64,000 nt of DNA from a virus (IMGVR_UViG_3300025778_000009); one strand, 5' to 3'; shown: positions 1,747 through 62,071, numbered from the stretch's first letter. Notes: generated by a model not told the origin, from the sequence alone. Translations and numbers: made by a program.

Positions 1747-4700
1747 ATGTCATCAGATATTTTAAATCAGCATCTAATCGGTAATGGAAGTAACACTCAA
1801 TTCACCTTATTAGAAGCTGTTGCCAATACTAGCTCTATTCTAGTAACTATCAACGGTCTAGTATCAGATCCTGACAGAGATTATACGGTTTCAGATAATT
1901 TATTATTATTTAATACCGCTCCATATAGTACTTCAGATATTGAAATTAGATATTTACCTGTAGTTCCCGTAGGATATACTGGGTCTGCAGGTGAACCTGC
2001 TGGTTACACTGGTTCTGCAGGACCAGTAGGAGCTCCTTCAGATATTCAGACTATAGTAGCTACTGGTTCATCTTATTACACTTTAACATCTACTCCTAAT
2101 TCTTCTAAAAATATATTAGTATCTGTAAATGGACTCTTACAGGTTCCAGAAGCTGATTATACTGTTTCTGGTTCTACTATTAATTTTAATACTATACCAG
2201 TAGAATTATCTGACATTGAAATAATTTATTTTGGTAATGTTGTAGGTTATAGAGGTTCTGCAGGGTTTCAAGGTTCTGTCGGATTTACAGGTTCTATTGG
2301 TTACAGTGGTAATGATGGATACACTGGTTCGATTGGTTACACAGGTTCTATAGGTGGTGCAGGTCCAGCTGGTTACACAGGTTCTGGTGGTGTAGCAGCC
2401 CCATCTGGTTTTCAAACATTTTTAACAGATAATAGAACTTCTTATCCTATTGATAGGGTAGTAGCATCATCTAAAGATATCTTAGTTTCCGTTAACGGGT
2501 TAATACAAGTACCTGACGCAGACTATATTGTTGTTGGTTCTAATATTAACTTTATAACAAAACCAAGTAATAATTCTGATGTAGAAATTTTATACTTTGA
2601 TGTTGCAGGGTTTATTGGTTCTACTGGTTATCTTGGTTCAACTGGGTTTAAAGGTTCTTCCGGTGACAACGGCTTACCAGGTTTCGTAGGATCCCAAGGT
2701 TATACAGGCTCTTCTGGTTTTGTCGGTTCTATGGGGTATGTTGGTTCTGGTGGTGTTGCCGCACCTTCAGAAATACAAACTATAGTTGCTGATGGTTCTA
2801 GTACATATACTTTAACAAGATATGTTGTTGATCCTAAACATATTTTTGTTATCGTTAACGGTCTTATTCAGATTGCAGATAGAGATTATACTGCAGCTGC
2901 AACTACCCTTACTTTCTATAATCCTCCTAATAATACTTCTGAAATTGAAATAATTTATTTTGAAGAAGCATTAGGATATCGAGGTTCTGTAGGTTATGCA
3001 GGTTCTGCAGGTACACCTGGAGGATCTACTGGTTATACTGGTTCTAGAGGAACTGACGGTTCCTTTGGATATACGGGTTCTACTGGTTATGTTGGTTCTG
3101 CTGGTGTTGGAGCTCCTTCTTCATATCAAATTTTATATGCAAATGGCTCTAATACAGTATTTACGTTAACATCTTCTGTTGATGCAGCTAAAAATATCCT
3201 TGTTTCTGTTAACGGTCTATTACAAATACCAGATACCGATTATACTGTATCCGGAACAACTATTTTATTTACTAATCCACCTAGTGATACTTCTCATATT
3301 GAAGTTTTATATTTTGATGTTTCTGGATATAGAGGTTCCACTGGTTATATGGGATCTAAAGGTGATCCTGGCGGTGATACTGGTTATACTGGCTCTATAG
3401 GTCCAAAAGGTGATATTGGTCCATTAGGTTATACTGGTTCTGTTGGATTTGGTTACACAGGTTCTGCAGGCCCTGTAGGTGCACCAACAAATTATCAAAC
3501 TATTGTTACAACATTTAATCAATCAACTTATAGTTTAAATCAAGATGTTGCACAAGCAGTAAGTATAATCGTTACTATAAACGGTCTTGTTCAAGTACCA
3601 GATCAAGACTATACCCTTCCTACTTCTAATACAATTACATTTACCAATACTCCAAATCCTAATTCTGATGTTGAAATTTTATATTTTTCTGCATCAGGAT
3701 TTACTGGATCAAGAGGTGCAGTAGGCTATCTAGGTTCAGTAGGTTATCAAGGTACTGTTGGTTTTAGCGGGTCGGCTGGTATTACTGGTTATATGGGATC
3801 TGCAGGGTCTGGGTTTACTGGCTCTATAGGTTATTCAGGATCTACAGGGTTTGCAGGATCTAGAGGAAGTTTAGGTTATACCGGCTCTATTGGTATTGGA
3901 TACACAGGTTCAGTTGGTTCTGGTTATACTGGTTCTACTGGTGCTGGGTATACCGGCTCTATCGGTTCATTAGGTTATACTGGTTCACAAGGATTTCAAG
4001 GTCTTACTGGTTATAGAGGTTCTACTGGTAGTACTGGTTTTGTAGGTTCTATTGGTTTAACAGGATCTATAGGTTATACAGGCTCTACTGGTGCCGGATT
4101 TGTTGGTTCTAGAGGTTTTGTTGGTTCTATTGGTTCACTAGGTTACACCGGATCTATTGGATTTACAGGTTCTATTGGTTATTCTGGTTCTAGAGGTGAT
4201 ATTGGTTTCTCTGGTTCAATAGGCTCGTTAGGTTATACAGGTTCTATTGGTATTGGATATACCGGTTCTACAGGAGCCCCTGGTGGTATTACGTATAACT
4301 ATAGATTCATTAATACACCTGTTGTTACTCCTGCATTTACTCAACAAGGTTATGCAGTTTTTAGTGCAACATCAAATGCTATTTACGTTACATCTGCTGA
4401 CCTAGCAGGAGCAAATACTGCATACTTTATAGAGTATGCATTAAAATCAGTTAATAATAGTATAAAAGGGTTTGTAACTTTATCAAGAGCTTCGACACCT
4501 TATGATGTTACAATATATTCAACTAACACTGCTATCTATTTCCCTTATCCTGCAGTACCTGCATTTCATAAAATATATCTTTCTTATCTGTCTGGTAATA
4601 CTACACCTTACTTAGACAATGAAATAATTAACATTTCATTTACGTTAACTGGAAGTCAAGGACCTAAAGGTGATAAGGGCGATATTGGTTATACTGGTTC

Positions 4701-7700
4701 TGCAGGTCCAGCTGGTCCTTCTGGTGCATTTGCTGGTATGGGTTATACCGGTTCTATTGGTTCATTGGGTTATTCTGGATCTATTGGATATACTGGTTCT
4801 ATAGGTATACAAGGTTCAATTGGCCCACAAGGCTACACAGGCTCTGTTGCTAACCCATCAGCTCCTGTAAGACAGAACTTTAACGGTGACGGTGTAACTA
4901 ACACATACAGTATTGATATCGGTCAAAACGTTAACGGTTATACACCTTATCAATTAGACGTTTATATTAACGGTGTAAAACTCTTTAACGGTATAGATGT
5001 CGATGTATCATCTGGTAATACCATACACTTTATTACCCCACCGAGAAAAGATGATAATATCGAAGTTGTAGGGTCATATATTTTCTCTACAAACCCAGAT
5101 AGTGCAGCATTATTTGGACCTAGAGGTTATACTGGGTCTGCTGGTCCACCTAACGGATATCAAGGATCTTTAGGTGAAACTGGCTATGTAGGTTCTAGAG
5201 GTTATACAGGTTCAACACCTAATCCTTCTGCACCTGTAAGACAAAATTTTAACGGTGATGGTACAACCAATACTTACTATATTGATATTGGTCAGAATGT
5301 AAATGGTTATACACCTTATCAGCTAGATGTTTATGTCAACGGTGTTAAGCTTTTCAATGGTATTGATGTTGATGTATCTTCTGGTAACTCTATTCATTTT
5401 ATTACACCACCTAGAATAAACGATAACATTGAAATAGTTGGATCTTATATCTTTTCAACTAATCCAGACAGTGCTGCATTGTTTGGTCCAAGAGGGTATA
5501 CTGGATCTCAAGGTCCACCAAACGGGTATCAAGGTTCTATTGGTGACATTGGTTATACTGGTTCTAGAGGCGATACTGGGTTTTCTGGTTCTGCTGGTAC
5601 TATTGGTTACTCTGGTTCTGGTGTAAGTTTTAGAAGTTACTATAATAATACTACAAATTACTATATTAATGATTTAGTAGAAGAAGATGGTGCCACTTAC
5701 ATTGCTATTGCACCTAGTATAGGAGAAGATCCTAAAACTAGCAACACATACTGGCAATTATTTGCTAGCAAAGGATATCAAGGTTCTAGAGGTTATACAG
5801 GTTCTACTCCTAACCCATCGTCTCCTGTAAGACAAAACTTTAACGGTGATGGTGTTTCTAGAACTTATTATATTGATATTGGGCAAAATGTCAATGGTTA
5901 TACTCCTTACGAGTTAGATGTATTCGTAAACGGTATTAAATTGTTTAACGGTCTTGATGTTGATGTATCATCTGGTAATGCTATTCACTTTGTAATACCG
6001 CCGAGAATAAACGATAATATCGAAGTAGTAGGGTCATATATTTTCTCTACTAATCCTGATCAAAATGCATTATTTGGGCCAAGAGGTTATACTGGTTCAG
6101 CAGGATTAAACGGGGCTGGTAATTCATTTACTAAAATTGTTGTTAGCGGTCAACCAGATTTAGTAGCATTAGAAGCAGATACTCTTCAAATAGTTGCTGG
6201 TGATAATATAGTTATATCAACTAACAATATTAATTCACCTAAAACTTTAACAATTTCTACATCACTGCCATCTGGTGCATCTGGTTATACAGGTTCGCAA
6301 GGTATAACGGGTTATATAGGTTCTATAGGAATTACCGGTTATACAGGATCAAGAGGATCTGATGGTGTTATAGGTTATAGTGGAAGTATAGGTTTCACAG
6401 GTTCTAAAGGGTCTGATGGCACTATAGGTTATACAGGATCGCAAGGTAATATAGGAAATACTGGAGATACTGGCTATACCGGATCAAGTGGAATAGACGG
6501 TGCAGTAGGTTATAATGGAAGTATAGGGTTCACAGGTTCTAAAGGGTCTGATGGTACTATAGGTTATACTGGATCTACAGGACCTGTAGCCGGATATGAT
6601 ACTCAAATTATATTTAATGATGGTAGTTATGCTAATGGTTCTTATGGATTAACTTATAATAAATCTACTCAAACATTAAACATAGGAAATAATCTTTATG
6701 TAGGTGGTAACATTTATATCACCGGCAACACTACAACTTTTGCTGCTAATAATTTAGAAATAGTAGATAATATGATCTACTTAAATTCTAATAGTGAATA
6801 TTCAAATCCCGATATTGGTTTTGCTGCAAATTATAATGACGGTGAATATCATCATACCGGTTTCTTTAGAGATCATGCAACAGGTATTTGGAAGGTATTT
6901 GAAAATTATAAACCAGAACCGCAAGCATCACAATTTATTGATCAATCTAATAATACCTTTAGAATAGCAGATTTTCAAGCAAATACTATTTTTGCTAATT
7001 CAATATATGCAAATGGTTCTTACGGTTCTTTTGGTCAAGTACTTATTTCTAATGGTTCAGGAATATTCTGGTCAACTTCTGCATTAGGGTTTAATGGTTC
7101 AACAGGGTATCAAGGTTCTTTAGGTGATACTGGCTACAAAGGTTCAATTGGTTACCAGGGTTCAGTTGGTAATCAAGGTATTTTTGGTTACCAGGGTTCT
7201 TCTGGCTACCAAGGATCAGTTGGTTATCAAGGAACTGTAGGTTTTCAAGGTTCAGCTGGCGCTACCGCCGATGCTGGTTATCAAGGAAGTGCAGGTTATC
7301 AGGGATCAGTAGGATTTCAAGGATCTTATGGATATCAAGGTACTGTAGGATTCCAAGGTTCTATAGGAGCTGTTGGATATCAAGGATCAGCAAGTGTTGG
7401 CTATAACGGTTCTACTGGATTTAATGGTTCTATAGGTAATAGAGGTCCTATAGGTTATACTGGATCAAAAGGTCAAGGATTTAATTGGAGAGGAGCTTGG
7501 GACGGAACACATAATGATTTTGGTGATTATCAAGTATACCTTCCTTATGATGTAGTACAATATGATCTAAACACATATGTTTGTATAGTATTATGTTATG
7601 GTGATTCTGGTACTCCTGCTGCAAGAACAGATTTATGGCAGATATTTGCAGAAGGTGTAGTAGGTTATGTTGGATCTAAAGGTCAAGATGGTGTACTGGG

Positions 7701-8370
7701 TTATAATGGTTCTATAGGTTATACAGGCTCAAAAGGTGATAATGGCGTTATTGGATATAACGGTTCTATAGGATATACAGGTTCTACTGGATTTGTTGGA
7801 TCTTCTGGAGCATCAGTTTATCAAGGCTATACTGGATCTACTGGTTATCAGGGTTCTAAAGGTGAAAGTTCTTATATTACCTCTGATACTGCACCTTCTA
7901 GTCCTTTAGTTGGAGATAGATGGTATAATACTACAGCTGGTATTGAACTAGTATGGACTTATGATGGTAATTCTTATCAGTGGGTAGAATTAGCTGCAAG
8001 CGGTTTCTTAGGTATGACCGGATATTCTGGTTCAATAGGAACTATAGGGTATACAGGTTCAGCTGCACAATCATTAATAAATTCAACTCAAAGTTCAATT
8101 TATGTTTTACAATCTTCGGATGATGGTAAATTAATTAATACATCTTATAGCGTTACTATACCTTCAAATGTATTTACAGCAGGTCAGACAATTACAATAT
8201 ATAACAGTAGCCAAACTAACGGTATTACAGTTACTCAAGGAAGCGGCACAACCGTATATTTGGTTAATACTACTTCTGTTGGAGACAGAACAGTAGGAGT
8301 AAATGGTATTGCAGTTATAATATGCGTGGATAATAATACTTTTGTTATTTCTGGTGGTGGTGTATCTTAA
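1747..8370 (+). CDS. giant (2207 aa) collagen-like fiber protein. It has six N-terminal ~75-aa repeated beta-domains separated by G-x-y tracts, long G-Y-T-G-S-x collagen-like tracts, three tandem ~100-aa domains, and a C-terminal globular region.
   Basis: Gly occurs at every third residue over hundreds of residues, in the pattern GYTGSIGFTGSIGYSGS. The module xQTIVAxGSxxYTLTxxxxxKNILVSVNGLLQVPDxDYTVSGxTIxFxxxPxxSDIEIxYF recurs six times. The block NPSAPVRQNFNGDG...FGPRGYTGS recurs three times. Confidence 0.8.
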   Translation: MSSDILNQHLIGNGSNTQFTLLEAVANTSSILVTINGLVSDPDRDYTVSDNLLLFNTAPYSTSDIEIRYLPVVPVGYTGSAGEPAGYTGSAGPVGAPSDIQTIVATGSSYYTLTSTPNSSKNILVSVNGLLQVPEADYTVSGSTINFNTIPVELSDIEIIYFGNVVGYRGSAGFQGSVGFTGSIGYSGNDGYTGSIGYTGSIGGAGPAGYTGSGGVAAPSGFQTFLTDNRTSYPIDRVVASSKDILVSVNGLIQVPDADYIVVGSNINFITKPSNNSDVEILYFDVAGFIGSTGYLGSTGFKGSSGDNGLPGFVGSQGYTGSSGFVGSMGYVGSGGVAAPSEIQTIVADGSSTYTLTRYVVDPKHIFVIVNGLIQIADRDYTAAATTLTFYNPPNNTSEIEIIYFEEALGYRGSVGYAGSAGTPGGSTGYTGSRGTDGSFGYTGSTGYVGSAGVGAPSSYQILYANGSNTVFTLTSSVDAAKNILVSVNGLLQIPDTDYTVSGTTILFTNPPSDTSHIEVLYFDVSGYRGSTGYMGSKGDPGGDTGYTGSIGPKGDIGPLGYTGSVGFGYTGSAGPVGAPTNYQTIVTTFNQSTYSLNQDVAQAVSIIVTINGLVQVPDQDYTLPTSNTITFTNTPNPNSDVEILYFSASGFTGSRGAVGYLGSVGYQGTVGFSGSAGITGYMGSAGSGFTGSIGYSGSTGFAGSRGSLGYTGSIGIGYTGSVGSGYTGSTGAGYTGSIGSLGYTGSQGFQGLTGYRGSTGSTGFVGSIGLTGSIGYTGSTGAGFVGSRGFVGSIGSLGYTGSIGFTGSIGYSGSRGDIGFSGSIGSLGYTGSIGIGYTGSTGAPGGITYNYRFINTPVVTPAFTQQGYAVFSATSNAIYVTSADLAGANTAYFIEYALKSVNNSIKGFVTLSRASTPYDVTIYSTNTAIYFPYPAVPAFHKIYLSYLSGNTTPYLDNEIINISFTLTGSQGPKGDKGDIGYTGSAGPAGPSGAFAGMGYTGSIGSLGYSGSIGYTGSIGIQGSIGPQGYTGSVANPSAPVRQNFNGDGVTNTYSIDIGQNVNGYTPYQLDVYINGVKLFNGIDVDVSSGNTIHFITPPRKDDNIEVVGSYIFSTNPDSAALFGPRGYTGSAGPPNGYQGSLGETGYVGSRGYTGSTPNPSAPVRQNFNGDGTTNTYYIDIGQNVNGYTPYQLDVYVNGVKLFNGIDVDVSSGNSIHFITPPRINDNIEIVGSYIFSTNPDSAALFGPRGYTGSQGPPNGYQGSIGDIGYTGSRGDTGFSGSAGTIGYSGSGVSFRSYYNNTTNYYINDLVEEDGATYIAIAPSIGEDPKTSNTYWQLFASKGYQGSRGYTGSTPNPSSPVRQNFNGDGVSRTYYIDIGQNVNGYTPYELDVFVNGIKLFNGLDVDVSSGNAIHFVIPPRINDNIEVVGSYIFSTNPDQNALFGPRGYTGSAGLNGAGNSFTKIVVSGQPDLVALEADTLQIVAGDNIVISTNNINSPKTLTISTSLPSGASGYTGSQGITGYIGSIGITGYTGSRGSDGVIGYSGSIGFTGSKGSDGTIGYTGSQGNIGNTGDTGYTGSSGIDGAVGYNGSIGFTGSKGSDGTIGYTGSTGPVAGYDTQIIFNDGSYANGSYGLTYNKSTQTLNIGNNLYVGGNIYITGNTTTFAANNLEIVDNMIYLNSNSEYSNPDIGFAANYNDGEYHHTGFFRDHATGIWKVFENYKPEPQASQFIDQSNNTFRIADFQANTIFANSIYANGSYGSFGQVLISNGSGIFWSTSALGFNGSTGYQGSLGDTGYKGSIGYQGSVGNQGIFGYQGSSGYQGSVGYQGTVGFQGSAGATADAGYQGSAGYQGSVGFQGSYGYQGTVGFQGSIGAVGYQGSASVGYNGSTGFNGSIGNRGPIGYTGSKGQGFNWRGAWDGTHNDFGDYQVYLPYDVVQYDLNTYVCIVLCYGDSGTPAARTDLWQIFAEGVVGYVGSKGQDGVLGYNGSIGYTGSKGDNGVIGYNGSIGYTGSTGFVGSSGASVYQGYTGSTGYQGSKGESSYITSDTAPSSPLVGDRWYNTTAGIELVWTYDGNSYQWVELAASGFLGMTGYSGSIGTIGYTGSAAQSLINSTQSSIYVLQSSDDGKLINTSYSVTIPSNVFTAGQTITIYNSSQTNGITVTQGSGTTVYLVNTTSVGDRTVGVNGIAVIICVDNNTFVISGGGVS

Positions 8371-37803: not shown

Positions 37804-38589
37804 TTACAGTTTAATTAAATCTTCTAGTTGATATTTCTGTGACATATAGCTAGAAACATTGTCTAAGACTGTTCTTTCTAAATCACCTTCACGTCTAGGA
37901 TATTCATTAACAGTAAAGTCTACATTATTAACTTTTTTAAAAGCTCTAATAATAGCTCTTACTGTATAACCAATACCAGTACCTAAATTTTCCAAACCAT
38001 TAGCAGGTTTGTCTATTGCTTTAATTAAAGCTTCACATATTTCGTTTACATGAACATAATCTCTAATACAAGTACCATCAGGTGTATTATAATCTGTACC
38101 GTAAAGATTAAATTCACCGGTATTTGCAGCTTTAATTAAATTATAAAGAAGACCGTCCGGGTTAGTAGGAGGAAAACCATCAGTTCCTATTACGTTATAA
38201 AATCTAAAAATAGTATAATTAAGATCTTTTTTATTGCAAACTTCTTTTACCACATCTTCACATGCACGCTTTGAAAATGCATATGGATTATTAGGGCTAG
38301 ATGCAGTCCCTGAAGAAGCAAAAATAAAATTATTATAAACAATCTTATTAAGTATATTAATTGTTCCACCAAGATTGTTATTATAATACTTAGAAGGTTC
38401 TTTAACCGATTCGTTAACCCTTACTAGTGCAGCAAGATGAATTACTGTATCTACAGAATAAAAAGTGAGTTTATCATTAATATCACCTTCATACTCTATT
38501 ACTTCATACAAGTCATTATAATGTGAAAGCATCTTTACTAAATGCTGACCAATATAACCCTTACTGCCTGTAATAATAATTTTTTTCAT
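37804..38589 (-). CDS. NAD(P)-dependent sugar epimerase/reductase (extended SDR family, GalE/RmlD-like)
   Basis: The N-terminal Rossmann motif is KIIITGSKGYIGQHL (TGxxGxxG). The catalytic YxxxK is NPYAFSKRACE. Confidence 0.7.
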   Translation of the reverse strand: MKKIIITGSKGYIGQHLVKMLSHYNDLYEVIEYEGDINDKLTFYSVDTVIHLAALVRVNESVKEPSKYYNNNLGGTINILNKIVYNNFIFASSGTASSPNNPYAFSKRACEDVVKEVCNKKDLNYTIFRFYNVIGTDGFPPTNPDGLLYNLIKAANTGEFNLYGTDYNTPDGTCIRDYVHVNEICEALIKAIDKPANGLENLGTGIGYTVRAIIRAFKKVNNVDFTVNEYPRREGDLERTVLDNVSSYMSQKYQLEDLIKL

Positions 38590-55745: not shown

Positions 55746-56533
55746 AAATAGCACATGAAGCTCCTATAAGTATATTTCCTACAGTTCAGCTTATGACCGA
55801 TTATGATTATGCGCTGGTACATTTATTTGAATCTAATTTAATGTATTACCGCATGTTCAAGGATGCAGTGGTAAGCGGACGTGAAGTAATTCTTGATAAT
55901 TCTATTTTTGAATTAGGTACATCATTTGATGGTGATACTTATTTTAATTGGATTGAAAAGTTACAACCTACATGGTACATTATACCAGATGTACTAGAAG
56001 ATAAACAGGGCACTTTGGATAAAATGGATAATTGGTTATCTAAGTATAAAGTCTCTTCAAATATTAAATCTATTGGTGTTATTCAAGGTAAGACTTTTGA
56101 TGAGCTTGCTGAATGTTATTTAAAGATTGCTCCACGGGTAGATAAAATTGCAATCTCTTTTGATTACTCATACTATATAGAATCAACAAAAGATATTAAT
56201 CCTACTAGCAAATACGCTGCATGGATGTTTGGTCGTCAAGCATTGTTAGAGGATTTACTTGCTGATGGTATTATAGATACTAACAAGCCCCATCATTTAT
56301 TAGGTTGCGCTTTACCACAAGAATTCTCTGCCTATAAAGACTATAAGTGGATTGACTCTGTTGATACTTCTAATCCTGTAGTACACGGGTTAAATGGTAT
56401 ACATTATACTTCTAATGGCTTAGATAGTAAAATTTCTACTAAGCTTATTGAGTATATGAACGAACAAGTAACCGATATACAACTTGGTATGGTTAAATAT
56501 AATATTGAAAAATTTAGAGAGTTTTGTAATTGA
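55742..56533 (+). CDS. dpdA: DpdA-like (tRNA-guanine transglycosylase fold) protein lacking the zinc subdomain; candidate DNA 7-deazaguanine transglycosylase
   Basis: NKPHHLLGCALPQEF...IDSVDTSNPVVHGLNG parallels the TGT core KPRYLMGVGKPEDL...DMFDCVMPTRNARNG. ILDNSIFELG lies at the position of the DSGGFQ substrate pocket. The gene sits inside the preQ gene cluster. Confidence 0.55.
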   Translation: MKIAHEAPISIFPTVQLMTDYDYALVHLFESNLMYYRMFKDAVVSGREVILDNSIFELGTSFDGDTYFNWIEKLQPTWYIIPDVLEDKQGTLDKMDNWLSKYKVSSNIKSIGVIQGKTFDELAECYLKIAPRVDKIAISFDYSYYIESTKDINPTSKYAAWMFGRQALLEDLLADGIIDTNKPHHLLGCALPQEFSAYKDYKWIDSVDTSNPVVHGLNGIHYTSNGLDSKISTKLIEYMNEQVTDIQLGMVKYNIEKFREFCN

Positions 56534-57066
56534 GACCGTGGATAGCTCTTTTTAGTCAAACTGGAAGTGAACTCAAAAGTATTTGTGATCACTTTAACGT
56601 ATGGCCTACAAACATATATACTAACAATTATAATGAAGATCAATGGGCTCATAATATACCTGTTGATAAAGTAACCATTATGAGCCATGATGCTATTCAT
56701 AATGGATTGCGCTTTACTAAGCAAAATTGCTTTGTAACCTTGCATGGATATCTTCGTATTATACCTGCTGACGTTTGTAAAATGCATGACATTTACAACG
56801 GTCATCCTGCACCTATACATCTTTATCCAGAACTTAAAGGTAAAGACCCTCAAGAGCGTATTTGGGAAGGTAATGCCAGGTATCATACATTAGGTTCAGT
56901 TATTCACAGAGTAACAGAAGGTGTTGATGAAGGCGAAATAGTTTATAGTGTTATTGAAGATAATACTTGCATTAGTAAGGAAGAGCTTTATAATACACTT
57001 AAGGATTGCTCATATAATTCGTGGATTGAATTTTTAGAAAGTAAGATAGATGTCAGCAAAAGATAA
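56530..57066 (+). CDS. PurN/Fmt-like formyltransferase (minimal N-terminal catalytic domain)
   Basis: RPWIALFSQTGSELKSI matches PurN RIAVLISGSGSNLQAI. FVTLHGYLRIIPADVCKMHDIYNGHPAPIHLYPELKG matches PurN VVLAGYMRIL...NIHPSLLPKYPG, with catalytic N, H and D. HRVTEGVDEGEIV matches PurN HFVTDELDGGPVI. Confidence 0.7.
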   Translation: MRPWIALFSQTGSELKSICDHFNVWPTNIYTNNYNEDQWAHNIPVDKVTIMSHDAIHNGLRFTKQNCFVTLHGYLRIIPADVCKMHDIYNGHPAPIHLYPELKGKDPQERIWEGNARYHTLGSVIHRVTEGVDEGEIVYSVIEDNTCISKEELYNTLKDCSYNSWIEFLESKIDVSKR

Positions 57067-57304
57067 TAAAGATGCAATTAGACCTAATCATTATAAAGGT
57101 AAAGGTAAATACGAATGCATCGATGTAATTGAAGATCTCTGCAATACTTCTACTAATGATCGATTTACTGACTACAATAGGTTTCAAGCTTTTAAATATG
57201 TCTGGCGTGCAGGTAATAAAGATCCTGTAATTCAGGATCTTAAGAAAGCTATTACGTTTTTAGAATTTGCAATTGCATATGAGGAAAAGAAAAATGTCAA
57301 GTAA
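57050..57304 (+). CDS. small conserved phage protein (DUF3310-like)
   Basis: RPNHYKGKGKYECIDVIEDL resembles the P-x-HY...G-x-E-x-ID-x-I signature recalled for DUF3310. Confidence 0.4.
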   Translation: MSAKDNKDAIRPNHYKGKGKYECIDVIEDLCNTSTNDRFTDYNRFQAFKYVWRAGNKDPVIQDLKKAITFLEFAIAYEEKKNVK

Positions 57305-58235
57305 GATTGAAGATATTGCATCCGTACACTTAGGAAAGGCTGGAGATGGATCAGTTGTTAAGCCTTATATTACTCCCGATTTTATTGATCGTAGCCTTCT
57401 TGTGGGTATTCCTCGCATGCTTAATCGCACTGCTTACAATATTGATGAATCTGATCTACCTTTCGTTGGTTTTGATACTTGGAACTGTTATGAGTTTTCT
57501 ACCCTTACTGATAATGGGTTTCCTGTTTGTGGTGTTATTAGGATTAGTTATCCGTCTGATTCGCCTAATATTGTAGAGTCAAAGTCACTTAAACTCTATA
57601 TGAACTCATTTAACATGACTCACTGTGGTAAGACCGTTGAGGATGTTATTGCAAAAGCAGAAGAAGTTATTATTCAAGATCTTGCACCTGCATTAGGTAT
57701 TGAGTATGATGATCTCTCAGTATCATTTGTTAATGAGTTTTCAGATACAGTAACACCAATCAAGAATTATTTTGCTCTTCTTGAAACTACAGTAGATGTA
57801 GAAAATATTTCGTTTGACCATTTTAACGAAGATCCAGATATCTTACAAATTGTAGATTATACTGGTATGAATCAAAATGGTATGCAAGTACGTTCTGCAG
57901 TTCTTCGTTCTAACTGCCGTGTTACTAATCAGCCAGACTGGGGTGATGTATATATTTCATTCAGAGGTGAAAAAGGTGTAACACCTGAATCACTACTACA
58001 GTATATTGTTTCTATGCGTAAAGAAAATCACTTTCATGAAGAGATTTGTGAGTGCATTTATAAGCGACTTCATGATATGCTACAACCAGAAGATCTTTTT
58101 GTAGCATGTCTGTATACACGTCGTGGTGGTATTGATATTAATCCAGCACGCGCTTCTAGCTATGAGCTATTAATGACTTATGCAGATAATCTAAGCAAGA
58201 CTCATAAATTGAACAATAAGACATTGAGGCAGTAA
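57294..58235 (+). CDS. queF: NADPH-dependent 7-cyano-7-deazaguanine reductase, bimodular (YqcD-type) QueF
   Basis: The first half carries the QueF motif VESKSLKLYMNSFN. The second half carries the catalytic Cys context NCRVTNQPDWGDVYISF and HFHEE. The ATG at 57294 follows GAGGAAAAG. The tracked ORF starts at 57267. Confidence 0.75.
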   Translation: MSSKIEDIASVHLGKAGDGSVVKPYITPDFIDRSLLVGIPRMLNRTAYNIDESDLPFVGFDTWNCYEFSTLTDNGFPVCGVIRISYPSDSPNIVESKSLKLYMNSFNMTHCGKTVEDVIAKAEEVIIQDLAPALGIEYDDLSVSFVNEFSDTVTPIKNYFALLETTVDVENISFDHFNEDPDILQIVDYTGMNQNGMQVRSAVLRSNCRVTNQPDWGDVYISFRGEKGVTPESLLQYIVSMRKENHFHEEICECIYKRLHDMLQPEDLFVACLYTRRGGIDINPARASSYELLMTYADNLSKTHKLNNKTLRQ

Positions 58236-58981
58236 TGAACTTACAAGAAGCATTAGCAGCATTACCTGATACAGATGATAATGTAGTATCCGTTCTTTCT
58301 GGTGGAATGGATTCTACTATCATGACTTACATCCTTGTTGCAAAGTATGGCAAGGAAAGAGTTTTTGCTTTATCATATAACTATGGTCAAAAGCAAAAGA
58401 AAGAACTTGAGATGGCTGCCAAGACATGTGAATATCTTGGCATTGCTCATAAAGTATTGGATCTTGGAATTCTTGGTGATATTGTAAAGGATGTCAGTGC
58501 AAATATCGGCGGCACTGACGTGGCTATGCCAACCATCAAAGATGTTCTTGGAGATCCACAACCTAAAACTTATGTACCATTCCGCAATATGATCTTAAAT
58601 GCATTAGCATTTTCATTTGCTGAATCTAATAAAGCTTCTCATGTATTTACCGGTTTACAAGTACATGACGAGTATGGCTACTGGGATACTTCTCAGAAAT
58701 TTGTTGATAATATGAATGCAGTTGCTGGTCTTAATCGCACCCACAAGGTTAAGCTTGAAGCGCCTTTTAGTCAATTAGCAAAGTGGGAAGAGATCAAGAT
58801 TGCAGAGGAGCTTGGTAATGTTAAACTTGAATACACTCTTACTTGTTATGATCCTGATGATGATGGAAGGTCATGTGGTGTTTGCCCCAGCTGTTCGGAG
58901 CGTATACAGAATTTTATTAGAGCTAATGTTCGTGATCCTATTGCTTACGTACACGGTATCGATTGGGATAGATTTATATAA
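58235..58981 (+). CDS. queC: 7-cyano-7-deazaguanine synthase
   Basis: VVSVLSGGMDSTIM is the PP-loop. The C-terminal zinc ligands are CYDPDDDGRSCGVCPSCSERI, a QueC-type CxxC...C cluster. Confidence 0.8.
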   Translation: MNLQEALAALPDTDDNVVSVLSGGMDSTIMTYILVAKYGKERVFALSYNYGQKQKKELEMAAKTCEYLGIAHKVLDLGILGDIVKDVSANIGGTDVAMPTIKDVLGDPQPKTYVPFRNMILNALAFSFAESNKASHVFTGLQVHDEYGYWDTSQKFVDNMNAVAGLNRTHKVKLEAPFSQLAKWEEIKIAEELGNVKLEYTLTCYDPDDDGRSCGVCPSCSERIQNFIRANVRDPIAYVHGIDWDRFI

Positions 58982-59610
58982 TGTGCAGTATCATTGGTTC
59001 TTTCAGTAAAGATAAAATTGCTGACCTCGTAAAGCTAAACCTTTATAGAGGTCAGCATTCATATTCTTATTCTTACTATAACCTTGAAGATAATACAATC
59101 CAAGTAAACAGAGGCTTAGGTGAGATACCTCTTGATGCTATTAACATACCCGATAGGTGCTATTGTATTGCTCATATGCAGGCGCCTACAACAGAAAATA
59201 AAGATATAAATTCTGTTCACCCTGCTTATAGTGGTAATGCTTTACTATGGCATAACGGTATAGTAAAGGCAAAATGGATTAACGAACGTAAGCAACAATA
59301 TGAAGGTGACCGTTATAATACTTGGGATACTTATTTGATTTTAAAGCAGTATGCTGAGGAAGGTCACCTAAATAATATTGATGGTACTTTTTCCTGTGTG
59401 TACTACAGTCCTATGGAAGGATTGCAGTTGTTTCGCAATCTCATTTCACCATTGTTCATAGATGATGATCATAATATCTCATCTACAAAATTTGAAAATT
59501 CTCAACCATTACCTGCAAATATTATCTGGAGTTTTAATCCAGGTGAAGGTATTATAAGAGATGGTATTTTTAATACAGTTGAAAACCCTTATTATGGATT
59601 AGATTTATGA
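58981..59610 (+). CDS. class-II (Ntn, AsnB-type) glutamine amidotransferase domain protein; effectively a split Gat-QueC in reversed order
   Basis: The N-terminus MCSIIGSF provides the catalytic Cys2 after Met removal. YRGQHSYS, HNGIVKAKW and GTFSCVYYS parallel AsnB MCSIFGVF, HRGPDWSG, NGEIYN and GMFAFALYD. The start ATG overlaps the queC stop as TAATG. Confidence 0.65.
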   Translation: MCSIIGSFSKDKIADLVKLNLYRGQHSYSYSYYNLEDNTIQVNRGLGEIPLDAINIPDRCYCIAHMQAPTTENKDINSVHPAYSGNALLWHNGIVKAKWINERKQQYEGDRYNTWDTYLILKQYAEEGHLNNIDGTFSCVYYSPMEGLQLFRNLISPLFIDDDHNISSTKFENSQPLPANIIWSFNPGEGIIRDGIFNTVENPYYGLDL

Positions 59611-60122
59611 GTATGTTACATATTGCTTCAAAGAAAACCAAATCAAGTTTAACCAATATGTTGGATGAAGATATCCAACCTAATGCCGTTGATCTTCGTC
59701 TTGATAAAATTTTTATTATTCATCCTGCTCTCTTTACTCTTGGTACTGATGATACTGGTAAAGAAATCAAAAAGCATAGAGGATCAGTAGAGATATATCC
59801 TGATAGTGAAGGTTACTTTTATTTGCATCCAGGTAATGCATACGAAGTTATTATGGAAAATGTTATTGAGGTAGGTGATGGTGAAGCAGGTTGGGTTATT
59901 ACCAGAAGTACTCTTAATCGTAATGGTTTGTATATTACTTCCGGTTTATATGACTCTGGCTATCATGGAGTTATGGCTGGTGCTCTACATGTAAAAAATG
60001 GTCCAGCAAAAATTAAAAAAGGTAGCCGTATTGGCCAGTTTTTACTTTTTAAGTCTGAGTCACTAAAGAAGTATGATGGTGATTATGGTCTCGGTAAAGA
60101 GCATGATAAAAAATATACTTGA
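59607..60122 (+). CDS. dUTPase / dCTP deaminase-family protein (T4 gp56-sized, 171 aa)
   Basis: NAVDLRLDKIFII...ITSGLYDSGYHGVMAGAL contains the GxxDxGYxG motif of the all-beta dUTPase/Dcd superfamily. Confidence 0.6.
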   Translation: MSMLHIASKKTKSSLTNMLDEDIQPNAVDLRLDKIFIIHPALFTLGTDDTGKEIKKHRGSVEIYPDSEGYFYLHPGNAYEVIMENVIEVGDGEAGWVITRSTLNRNGLYITSGLYDSGYHGVMAGALHVKNGPAKIKKGSRIGQFLLFKSESLKKYDGDYGLGKEHDKKYT

Positions 60123-60294
60123 ATATATTAAATGGTCTAACTTATTAATAAAATTTAGATTAAACCCATTTCGGTGGCATATATCCTATAGTTGGTATAC
60201 TCATAGTGATATGGATCCTGGAATGTTAATAAATGCGCATTTAGAATTTGGTCCATTAGAAATTGCATTATGGATTGATGATGGTAGTTGGTAA
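60073..60294 (+). CDS. small hypothetical ORF
   Basis: 73-aa ORF filling the 60123..60314 gap. The call is weak. Confidence 0.2.
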   Translation: MMVIMVSVKSMIKNILEYIKWSNLLIKFRLNPFRWHISYSWYTHSDMDPGMLINAHLEFGPLEIALWIDDGSW

Positions 60295-60314
60295 AAAACA
60301 AGGAAAAATAAAAA

Positions 60315-61388
60315 ATGGAAATTAAAATTGATTTAGAATTATTGCGCTCTAAGAAAATTTTCTTAGCTACACCAATGTATGGTGGTAATTGTAACGGCAT
60401 GTATACCCGTTCATTGTGTGACTTGACCGCTATGTGTGTTAAGTATGGTATTGAACTTCGTTCTTACTTTCTTTTCAACGAGTCCTTGATTACACGTGCT
60501 CGTAACTATTGTGTTGACGAGTTTATGCGTTCAGGTGCAGATCACCTTCTATTCATTGACTCTGACATTGGATTTAATCCACAAGACGTTATTGCTATGA
60601 TGGCATTGCAAGCAGCAGAACCAGAGAAGTATAATGTTATTGGTGGTCCATATCCTAAGAAGTGTATTACATGGGAAAAGATTCTTGCTGCTGTTAATAA
60701 AGGTGTAGCAGATCAAAATCCTAATCAGTTAGAAGATTTCGTCGGTGATTTTGTTTTTAATCCAGTTATTACAGGTGAGCAGACTTCTATTCGTCTTGAT
60801 GAGCCAGCTGAAGTTCTTGAGATCGGTACAGGCTTTATGATGGTAACACGTGATACTTTCTTGACATTTGAAAAAGAGTATCCACAGTATTCCTATAAAC
60901 CAGATCATGTTCGCACCGAAGCCTTTGATGGTTCACGTGAAATTATGATGTACTTCCAGGCTGAAAAAGATGGTTTAGATTATGGCAAGTTCTATGCTGA
61001 CGGTATGCAGAAAATTGCCGCTATGCGTCTCAACGATCCTGATCTAGTACAAGCAGAAATTGAAAAGTTAATGGCAACTGCTATTGAAATGGATTCAAGA
61101 ACTTCTAAGCGTTATCTCTCAGAGGATTATTGGTTCTGTCAATTAGTTCGCCGTATTGGATTGAAGGTCTGGTTGTGCCCTTGGATGCACTTACAGCATG
61201 CTGGTACATATGTGTTTGCTGGTAAGCTACCTGCATTAGCTTCAATTGGTGCATCTGCAACTGCTGATGCTGCTCTTCTTAATAAATTTAAGAACGGCGG
61301 TGTAGCTAAACCAGCAATCGCACCTTCAAAGTCTACACCGGTCATTGCTAATGATCCTGCTCTTCTTAGCAAGTTTAAGAAGATTTAA
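60315..61388 (+). CDS. putative GT-A-fold (DxD) glycosyltransferase with a C-terminal duplicated Lys-Phe-Lys tail
   Basis: IFLATPMYGGNCNG...ITRARNYCVDEFMRSGADHLLFIDSDIGF resembles the GT2 pattern of an N-terminal Rossmann strand followed by R-N-x6-G-x3-L-F-h-D-x-D. The tail carries AALLNKFKNGG and PALLSKFKKI. Confidence 0.4.
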   Translation: MEIKIDLELLRSKKIFLATPMYGGNCNGMYTRSLCDLTAMCVKYGIELRSYFLFNESLITRARNYCVDEFMRSGADHLLFIDSDIGFNPQDVIAMMALQAAEPEKYNVIGGPYPKKCITWEKILAAVNKGVADQNPNQLEDFVGDFVFNPVITGEQTSIRLDEPAEVLEIGTGFMMVTRDTFLTFEKEYPQYSYKPDHVRTEAFDGSREIMMYFQAEKDGLDYGKFYADGMQKIAAMRLNDPDLVQAEIEKLMATAIEMDSRTSKRYLSEDYWFCQLVRRIGLKVWLCPWMHLQHAGTYVFAGKLPALASIGASATADAALLNKFKNGGVAKPAIAPSKSTPVIANDPALLSKFKKI

Positions 61389-61405
61389 CAGAAAGTTAAT
61401 ATATT

Positions 61406-62071
61406 ATGAAATTAAGTGAACATACAGTTAACATTCTTAAGAATTTCTCTAATATTAATCCAATGTTGTTAGTGAACCCTGGTAGTTCACTAACAACTAT
61501 GAATATTAATAGATCTATATTTGCTTCAGCAAACGTAGAAGAGAATTTCCCTAGTCAGTTTGCTATCTTTGAACTACCTAAATTTTTAGGTGTACTTTCT
61601 CTGTTTAAAGAACCAGAGTTAGAGTTTGGTAGCAAGCAAGTTAAAATTGCTTCTGGTCGTCAATCAGTAAATTATACATTTGCAGATCCTTCTATGGTTG
61701 TTGCACCAGATCCAAATAAAAATATTAATTTTCCGGCTGCTGATATTGAGTTCTCCATTTCTCAAGAAGAATTGCAACGTGTAGTGAGAGCCACTGCAGT
61801 TCTTCAGTTGCCGGATATTGCAGTGATAGGTGATGGTGAAAACATCTCTATCACTGCTACCAATTCTAAGAATCCTACTACAGATGGTTTTAGTATTGTT
61901 GTAGGTAACACTAATAAGTCATTTTCAATGTTTTTTGAAGTGGCTGACATTATTAAGTTGATTTCTTCTGATTATAATGTTAAGATATCATCTAAAGGTC
62001 TTTCACAATGGAAGTCTGATAATGTTCTTTATTATGTGGCTGTAAAGGCTAATAGTTCTTTTACAAATTGA
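61406..62071 (+). CDS. gp45: DNA polymerase sliding clamp
   Basis: MKLSEHTVNILKNFSNINPMLLVNPG...FAIFELPKFLGVLSLF aligns with T4 gp45 MKLSKDTTALLKNFATINSGIMLKSG...VAIYDLNGFLGILSLV. Confidence 0.9.
   Translation: MKLSEHTVNILKNFSNINPMLLVNPGSSLTTMNINRSIFASANVEENFPSQFAIFELPKFLGVLSLFKEPELEFGSKQVKIASGRQSVNYTFADPSMVVAPDPNKNINFPAADIEFSISQEELQRVVRATAVLQLPDIAVIGDGENISITATNSKNPTTDGFSIVVGNTNKSFSMFFEVADIIKLISSDYNVKISSKGLSQWKSDNVLYYVAVKANSSFTN

Follow-up and report, generated by a model that had tools for sequence, protein, structure and literature searches.

The stretch of viral DNA analysed here (IMGVR_UViG_3300025778_000009; 64,000 nucleotides, nt), which we refer to at its full length as the window, carries on its plus strand an open reading frame (ORF) of 178 amino acids (aa) at 56530..57066. 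This ORF encodes a small formyltransferase-like protein, lies directly downstream of a gene for a predicted DNA guanine transglycosylase of the DpdA3 subfamily, and is flanked on both sides by genes for the synthesis of 7-aminomethyl-7-deazaguanine (preQ1). As set out below, the protein is a member of the DpdN family, whose predicted role is to formylate the 7-deazaguanine base with which certain phages modify their DNA against bacterial restriction.

The formyltransferase gene and its protein

Independent gene calls on identical metagenomic contigs gave the same boundaries for the 178-aa ORF, which are also exactly those of the original prediction. The TTG start (56530-56532) shares the letters TTGA with the TGA stop (56531-56533) of an upstream 263-aa ORF (55742..56533), and the final 17 nt run past the ATG (57050) of the next ORF, so that the overlaps claimed for both ends of the gene are indeed present. 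Among the possible starts, TTG alone retains an invariant tryptophan (Trp4), and in relatives the start codon at the same position is ATG (56 cases), GTG (14) or TTG (9). The claim of a common operon rests on these same-strand overlaps; a scan for sigma-70 promoters and terminators across 49000-61500 gave counts no better than those in shuffled sequence and speaks neither for nor against it. An antisense ORF of 160 aa (56404..56886) was taken to be a shadow ORF of AT-rich DNA. The gene had originally been placed between a DpdA-like gene and QueF: the upstream part of this placement holds, while the immediate downstream neighbour is a gene for an 84-aa DUF3310 protein (57050..57304, plus strand; PF11753, E = 2.1e-12), with QueF following it.

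The upstream gene (55742..56533, plus strand) is predicted to encode a DpdA3-subfamily DNA guanine transglycosylase. Its 263-aa product had no match in Pfam, and a DpdA sequence profile searched against PDB sequences returned no tRNA-guanine transglycosylase (TGT), so that structure prediction and Foldseek were needed. By tblastn the protein matched the DpdA of the Flavobacterium phage immuto (57%), the Campylobacter CP220 group (37%) and Cellulophaga phage phiST (24%), whose transglycosylases make up the published DpdA3 set. Its AlphaFold2 (AF2) model was of high predicted accuracy (predicted local distance difference test score, pLDDT, 95.4), and the top 50 PDB matches of that model were all tRNA-guanine transglycosylases (E ~1e-7, template modelling (TM) score 0.61-0.67). 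Homology to the DpdA3 set and a TGT fold thus bear out the earlier description of this gene as DpdA-like.

The formyltransferase-like protein itself is short and consists of a single domain, unlike the longer form that makes up group 3 in PMC10516641. PF00551 is its sole Pfam family (residues 68-159; 33.9 bits against a gathering score of 26.1, E = 3.3e-8), and an AF2 model built from 54 homologues spans all 178 residues (pLDDT 95.4, predicted TM score 0.90). A C-terminal domain of the Fmt/ArnA type (PF02911-type) is missing, as had been proposed: Pfam gives PF00551 only and the protein ends at residue 178. The top PDB fold matches of the model are PurN structures (4s1n, E = 7e-12, TM score 0.78), with PurU, sugar N-formyltransferases, ArnA and Fmt at lower ranks, and a Foldseek search of the viral models in BFVD returned giant-virus Fmt-like matches only and no DpdN models.

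The PurN catalytic-domain signatures reported for this ORF could be traced in its sequence, namely FSQTGSE (residues 8-14), YNGHPAPIHLYPELKGKDPQ (89-108) and IHRVTEGVDEGE (125-136). We aligned the family to the Escherichia coli PurN sequence, after checking the latter against 1c2t, and found that N90, H92 and D133 of the window protein correspond to N106, H108 and D144 of PurN; all three are invariant across 54 family members. In the folate loop R76 aligns with PurN R90, and in the phosphate loop G12-S13 align with PurN G11-S12, with T11-G12-S13 invariant in the family. The N-terminal loop had been described as glycine-rich, which it is not: it reads S-Q-T-G-S-E, is homologous to the SGNGSN loop of PurN and carries an invariant Glu14 in place of PurN Asn13. 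The family further has a 3-residue insertion relative to PurN in its ELKGKDPQ loop, and beyond residue 144 it is not alignable to the PurN helix bearing Q170/E173. In E. coli PurN, the acceptor, glycinamide ribonucleotide (GAR), is bound by the phosphate loop (G-S-N) and by this helix.

Compared with PurN as a family (TIGR00639; E. coli 1c2t, Streptococcus pneumoniae 4s1n), the window protein thus has in common the fold, the Asn/His/Asp triad, the folate-loop residues, a homologous N-terminal loop and probably the formyl donor, N10-formyl-tetrahydrofolate (N10-formyl-THF). On the other hand, it is about 30 aa shorter, lies in another genomic context and scores 27.5 bits against TIGR00639, the PurN equivalog model, whose cut-off is 150.1. 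Judged by sequence, it is not PurN.

The DpdN family and its link to DpdA3

When 50,697 phage records were searched by tblastn, the window protein had relatives only in the three immuto phages of Flavobacterium (identity 39%, coverage 96%, E = 5e-30). The matched gene is immuto26A_67 (RefSeq locus tag KNV73_gp067), whose product was named DpdN by Cui et al. (Nucleic Acids Research 2023; PMC10516641). All G in immuto DNA is replaced by 2'-deoxy-7-(formylamino)methyl-7-deazaguanosine (fdPreQ1), which was measured at 345,000 per 10^6 nt, with deoxyguanosine (dG) and the unformylated deoxynucleoside (dPreQ1) both at zero; the name DpdN was based on this finding and on a formyltransferase gene adjoining the deazaguanine genes, and only four DpdN proteins were listed (PMC10516641). 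As a reverse control, the E. coli PurN query returned 76 phage records, including those of cyanophage PurN and none of immuto, a set disjoint from that of the window protein.

A profile hidden Markov model (HMM) of the family separates the two groups further. Its training set consisted of 45 metagenomic sequences, none of them more than 55% identical to the window protein, and both the window protein and immuto were left out. It gave 254 bits to the window protein and 183 bits to immuto DpdN, compared with 31-42 bits for the proteins called PurN in phages P-SSM7, S-SKS1 and P-SSM2 and 32.5 bits for E. coli PurN. A comparison by HMM with the formyltransferases of fdPreQ1-containing phages had been suggested in the original prediction, and its outcome is unambiguous.

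The window and immuto proteins are of similar length (178 and 175 aa), each with one PF00551 domain, and have the invariant motifs FSQTGSE, LHGY/WLRI, YNGHP, YPELKGKDPQ and VTxGVDEGE in common; in both phages DpdN comes just after a DpdA3 gene and before QueF. The loci differ in their arrangement, however. In immuto the order is DpdA, small ORF, DpdN, P-loop protein and QueF, with a 155-nt spacer holding the small ORF ahead of DpdN, whereas in the window start and stop overlap directly; the AAA_28 P-loop gene of immuto is replaced by DUF3310 in the window, and an amidotransferase gene associated with QueC is present in the window and absent from immuto. The phages themselves are also different, since the window derives from a T4-like myovirus and not from an Immutovirus (its gp44 shares 65% identity with the one in Stenotrophomonas phage DLP_6 and 60% with the one in Methylophilales phage Melnitz).

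Two other groups of phage proteins invite comparison. Short PurN-like proteins of cyanophages (P-SSM2 gp051, P-SSM7 gp151 and S-SKS1 gp117; phrog_9240) likewise come from T4-like phages, measure 174-191 aa and belong to the same fold family as the window protein, but they are genuine relatives of PurN, keeping the SGNGTN loop and being 34-42% identical to E. coli PurN, and have no deazaguanine genes near them. They are probably the group 2 of PMC10516641. DpdM, the dPreQ1 N-methyltransferase of Cellulophaga phage phiSM and of Vibrio phages, also decorates the 7-aminomethyl nitrogen of preQ1 within a DpdA-based cluster; its fold is unrelated, it adds a methyl and not a formyl group, and only a few per cent of dPreQ1 is modified, as against complete formylation in immuto (PMC10516641).

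The family is much larger in environmental sequence than among cultured phages. A relative is encoded on at least 558 IMG/VR stretches, and we compared the 80 best of these viral loci together with immuto (81 loci in all). DpdA3 lies directly 5' of DpdN in 77 of the 81; in the four exceptions the DpdN match is mostly at a contig edge, and in one (L066) DpdA is found 6.9 kb upstream. QueF is found downstream in 75 loci, with QueC in 62 and FolE in 61. A search of 185,579 species genomes yielded eight further DpdN loci (DpdN identity 35-43%), all on contigs of metagenome-assembled genomes (MAGs) and all with DpdA3 upstream; together with one more metagenome contig (L090) this makes nine of nine additional loci, and 86 of 90 overall. 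In 52 of 71 loci DpdN begins before DpdA has ended, the two sharing 4, 8 or 1 nt. A search of 5.8 billion clustered proteins gave 837 homologues at E <= 1e-3, all of about 170-195 aa and far more than chance would produce, and when 1.84 billion cluster representatives were searched exhaustively there were 380 family clusters (50% identity) at E <= 1e-3 and 313 at E <= 1e-10, a steep distribution of E-values which suggests that the family is sharply bounded. The exact sequence of the window protein was found in metagenome assemblies alone, the largest of the contigs reaching 229 kb; no member of its 90% cluster comes from NCBI, and of the 120 homologues listed, those with an NCBI source are at most 54% identical to it. 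T4-like replication genes are present in many of the examined loci.

In two lineages DpdA3 and DpdN are fused, each domain being complete (L090:2262-3602, 447 aa; L095:7212-8570, 453 aa). As these two ORFs are only 36% identical over their full length, the fusion is a product of evolution, conserved within a sub-lineage, and not of faulty assembly, and it provides Rosetta-stone evidence that DpdA3 and DpdN act together. The sources of the fusions are a fecal MAG binned as Lachnospiraceae and another metagenome. The slot between DpdN and QueF is occupied by an AAA_28 P-loop protein in 52 loci and by DUF3310 in 23, the window included. The P-loop protein has 175-183 aa and belongs to the Pfam family AAA_28 (NadR-like kinases), and its immuto representative, gp68 (L001:9525-10049), is annotated as 'thymidylate kinase'; no AAA_28 homologue was found within the 64-kb window. 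Slot proteins are also found fused to DpdN, namely AAA_28 in P0165 and P0269 and DUF3310 in P0022 (251 aa), while P0197 has a thymidylate-kinase-like P-loop domain N-terminal to DpdN. A more unusual protein, P0176 (392 aa), combines a Lys-rich N-terminal tail with two tandem DpdN-like domains, of which the first is without the N-G-H-P motif.

The preQ1 pathway genes and other neighbours

The genes for DpdA3, DpdN, FolE, QueD, QueE, QueC as well as QueF all lie on one strand within 51568..58981, which thus holds the whole pathway from GTP to preQ1 together with the inserting enzyme and the formyltransferase. The first pathway step is assigned to FolE, a GTP cyclohydrolase I (53946..54677; PF01227, E = 3.8e-39), followed by QueD, a 6-carboxy-tetrahydropterin synthase (52712..53233; PF01242, E = 4e-16), and by QueE, a radical S-adenosylmethionine (SAM) 7-carboxy-7-deazaguanine synthase (51568..52458; Radical_SAM and Fer4_12, E ~1e-5). 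The Radical_SAM score of the latter (25.2 bits) is below the gathering score of 29.5; the gene is syntenic with QueE in 51 of the 81 loci, and its true start is probably an ATG near 51595. QueC, the synthase of 7-cyano-7-deazaguanine (preQ0), is encoded at 58235..58981 (PF06508, E = 3e-53). The bimodular QueF (57294..58235; PF14819 and PF14489) is the nitrile reductase that converts preQ0 to preQ1 and is 46% identical to its immuto counterpart. Its ORF is open from 57267, and the likely start is 57294, the 313-aa form that is called on identical contigs. In the sequence of this QueF, ESKSLKLY and SNCRVTNQPDWG are recognisable as the QueF motif and the segment with the catalytic Cys.

Directly after QueC the window encodes, on the same strand, a 209-aa protein resembling class-II (N-terminal Cys) glutamine amidotransferases (58981..59610), with a match to PF13522 that is under the gathering score (E = 5e-5) and a stronger one to phrog_12378 (E = 2e-37). 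It begins with Met-Cys, as expected of a class-II-type N-terminal nucleophile, and follows QueC in 54 of the 81 loci; homologues adjoin QueC in KVP40-like Vibrio phages and in Pseudomonas phage pf16. It is probably a source of glutamine-derived ammonia for QueC and would then represent a split form of the Gat-QueC arrangement.

Several further genes lie within or beside the cluster. A gene for an NADPH-dependent FMN reductase or flavodoxin-like protein (PF03358; 53233..53934) stands between QueD and FolE; it was not found in the other related loci searched, nor in a locus 88-97% identical to the window (L002), and its product could be an electron donor for QueE, a radical-SAM enzyme. Just 5' of QueE is a peptide deformylase gene (50879..51358; PF01327, E = 1.7e-36), which is found in 22 of the 81 loci at a distance of up to about 3-9 kb from DpdN. 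Deformylases are common phage auxiliary genes, and their recurrence near a formyltransferase cluster is a curious one. Further upstream (49144..50879), a cupin gene (219 aa; PF07883) comes after a 359-aa ORF in which an SGGIDS PP-loop motif is present; the 359-aa ORF had no match in any family searched and none in a PDB sequence search, and neither was found in related loci.

Directly 5' of DpdA3 lies a 143-aa ORF (orf143; 55314..55745), which is kept at that position in 34 of the 81 loci and had no match in Pfam, PHROGs, NCBIfam or PADLOC, nor among PDB sequences; on visual inspection, its GIDFIV ... IDVKT recalls the core of PD-(D/E)xK nucleases. An HNH endonuclease gene (54977..55330) between orf70 and orf143 is missing from the near-identical L002, which has at L002:10392-11057, between DUF3310 and QueF, a 221-aa ORF resembling a GIY-YIG endonuclease. 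Homing endonucleases thus seem to move in and out of the cluster. The PADLOC defence models gave nothing meaningful. At the start of the window, a 2207-aa ORF (1747..8370) lies in a run of large same-strand ORFs which is plausibly the structural region.

Predicted function, alternatives and implications

The match to immuto phages only, the separation by HMM, the DpdA3 gene upstream and the complete FolE-to-QueF pathway all agree with the original proposal, in which the protein is a formyltransferase of the DpdN type with preQ1 or dPreQ1 as its substrate. We consider it probable that the window ORF is a DpdN orthologue, that is, a branch of the PurN-type formyltransferase fold specific to phages, predicted to formylate the 7-aminomethyl group of preQ1 or dPreQ1 and so to give rise to fdPreQ1 in DNA. 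In the proposed route FolE, QueD, QueE, QueC with its putative amidotransferase partner, and QueF would convert GTP to preQ1, and DpdA3 would exchange genomic guanine for the 7-deazaguanine base. DpdN would move a formyl group from N10-formyl-THF onto the primary amine of the 7-aminomethyl side chain, with N90, H92 and D133 acting as their counterparts do in PurN, and the product in DNA would be fdPreQ1. By analogy with immuto, fdPreQ1 would probably replace most or all G and shield the genome from restriction. We infer which donor and acceptor are used, and how complete the replacement is, from the mechanism of PurN and from the measurements in immuto; the biological role, too, is inferred. 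The donor given in the 2023 paper is 5-methyl-THF (PMC10516641), which looks like a slip.

As regards timing, we have a slight preference for formylation that precedes or accompanies insertion, within a complex of DpdA3 with DpdN, over formylation of dPreQ1 already in DNA, because immuto DNA contains no dPreQ1 and because DpdA3 and DpdN are fused in two lineages. The same order is favoured by the contrast between methylation of a few per cent by DpdM and zero residual dPreQ1 in immuto, by the small-molecule fold of DpdN and by its translational coupling. Action on DNA, on the other hand, has a precedent in what was proposed for DpdM (PMC10516641) and could find some support in the Lys-rich tail of P0176. 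Charge is uninformative as a clue to DNA binding, as the median isoelectric point (pI) of DpdN is 6.6 and that of DpdA, which presumably binds DNA, is 4.9. A bolder version, which we think unlikely, would have DpdN and DpdA3 form one physical unit, mostly with the AAA_28 kinase-like partner, that either inserts pre-formed N-formyl-preQ1 or uses a GAR-like nucleotide acceptor such as dPreQ1 5'-phosphate; complete replacement of G would then result from a channelled or nucleotide-level route and not from base exchange in the duplex followed by decoration.

A further possibility, which we regard as improbable, is that the acceptor is a phosphorylated nucleoside (e.g., dPreQ1 5'-monophosphate). 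The modification would then arise on the nucleotide and enter the DNA at replication, a route that DpdA3 and a kinase would feed. The phosphate-binding loop of PurN is kept as the invariant T11-G12-S13, and by our reckoning the amine is at a similar distance from C1' in the two molecules, namely five bonds in a dPreQ1 nucleotide and four in GAR. The AAA_28 protein in the slot of 52 loci and the P-loop fusions of P0165, P0269 and P0197 would be in line with a kinase step, and complete replacement of G, as seen in DpdA3 phages, is typical of pre-replicative routes. However, the window has no AAA_28 gene, so a kinase is not obligatory in its lineage, at least within the 64 kb; the PurN Asn13 that contacts the phosphate is replaced by the invariant Glu14; the published view is one of post-replicative insertion by DpdA; and the TGT fold of DpdA3 is one that acts on polynucleotides.

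Two more conventional explanations are far less probable still. One is that the gene is an ordinary PurN, a GAR transformylase carried as an auxiliary metabolic gene to boost purine synthesis in the host. Its fold and triad are those of PurN, PurN genes for proteins of 174-191 aa do occur in T4-like cyanophages, and family members bear the Joint Genome Institute (JGI) names 'PurN', 'Fmt' or 'formyl-THF hydrolase'. Against this, the TIGR00639 score is far below the cut-off, the phage records found with E. coli PurN and with the window protein do not overlap, and the match between the two proteins is confined to a local segment of 72 residues (29% identity), with FSQTGSE where cyanophage PurN has SGNGTN. 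Moreover, the helix with the GAR-binding Q170/E173 is not alignable, and the neighbours are DpdA3 and QueF instead of purine-synthesis genes. Scores, motifs and context lead us to rule this explanation out in practice; by the same token of PurN-model scores and genomic context, the public names PurN, methionyl-tRNA formyltransferase and formyl-THF hydrolase (P0004, P0019, P0023, P0040, P0042 and others) appear to be misannotations. Equally hard to sustain is formyl transfer, or hydrolysis of formyl-THF, for an unrelated target such as an amino sugar or Met-tRNA, with the position in the cluster being coincidental. Weak profile or fold matches to the sugar N-formyltransferases VioF, PseJ and WbkC and to ArnA, Fmt and PurU could be cited in its favour, as could a gene for an NAD-dependent epimerase/dehydratase at 37804..38589 in the window. 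Yet the sugar-type, ArnA, Fmt and PurU matches are much weaker than those to PurN, the protein is without the C-terminal domain of Fmt or ArnA, and adjacency to DpdA3, overlaps and fusions included, persists across lineages whose identity is as low as about 35%, which is incompatible with coincidence. The missing domain and the persistent linkage to DpdA3 together lead us to discard a sugar or tRNA acceptor.

The assignment as a DpdN orthologue that formylates preQ1 or dPreQ1 has important caveats of its own. Identity to the sole phage with measured fdPreQ1 is only 39%, and the function of DpdN itself appears to be predicted only, with no biochemical or genetic validation found in the literature searched. 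The phage is uncultured and known from metagenomic contigs alone, and a megablast of 55700-58300 against the phage records gave no match, so it has no close cultured relative. The additional amidotransferase next to QueC and the lack of AAA_28 within the 64 kb mean that the end product could differ in detail from that of immuto. Finally, the window DpdN is acidic (pI 5.8) and has no recognisable DNA-binding feature, which is neutral with regard to action on DNA.

The DpdN family, its name, its predicted function and the exact gene neighbourhood were already published in 2023, when fdPreQ1 was measured in a single cultured phage (PMC10516641). The cluster tables used here carry no accessions, so that family members could not be linked to the CAB accessions named in that paper. 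New in the present case are the protein sequence itself and its host, a T4-like myovirus instead of an Immutovirus, and our analysis adds how large the family is in nature, its almost universal overlap with DpdA3, the fusions of DpdA3 to DpdN and the AAA_28 partner. Many orthologues and natural DpdA3-DpdN fusions are now on hand for the biochemistry of DpdN. With a DpdA3-DpdN-QueF module in at least 558 IMG/VR stretches, genomes that are fully substituted with formyl-deazaguanine may be common in nature, which, if true, would have a bearing on restriction in the interplay of phages and their hosts, on sequencing and on the metagenomic recovery of such DNA.

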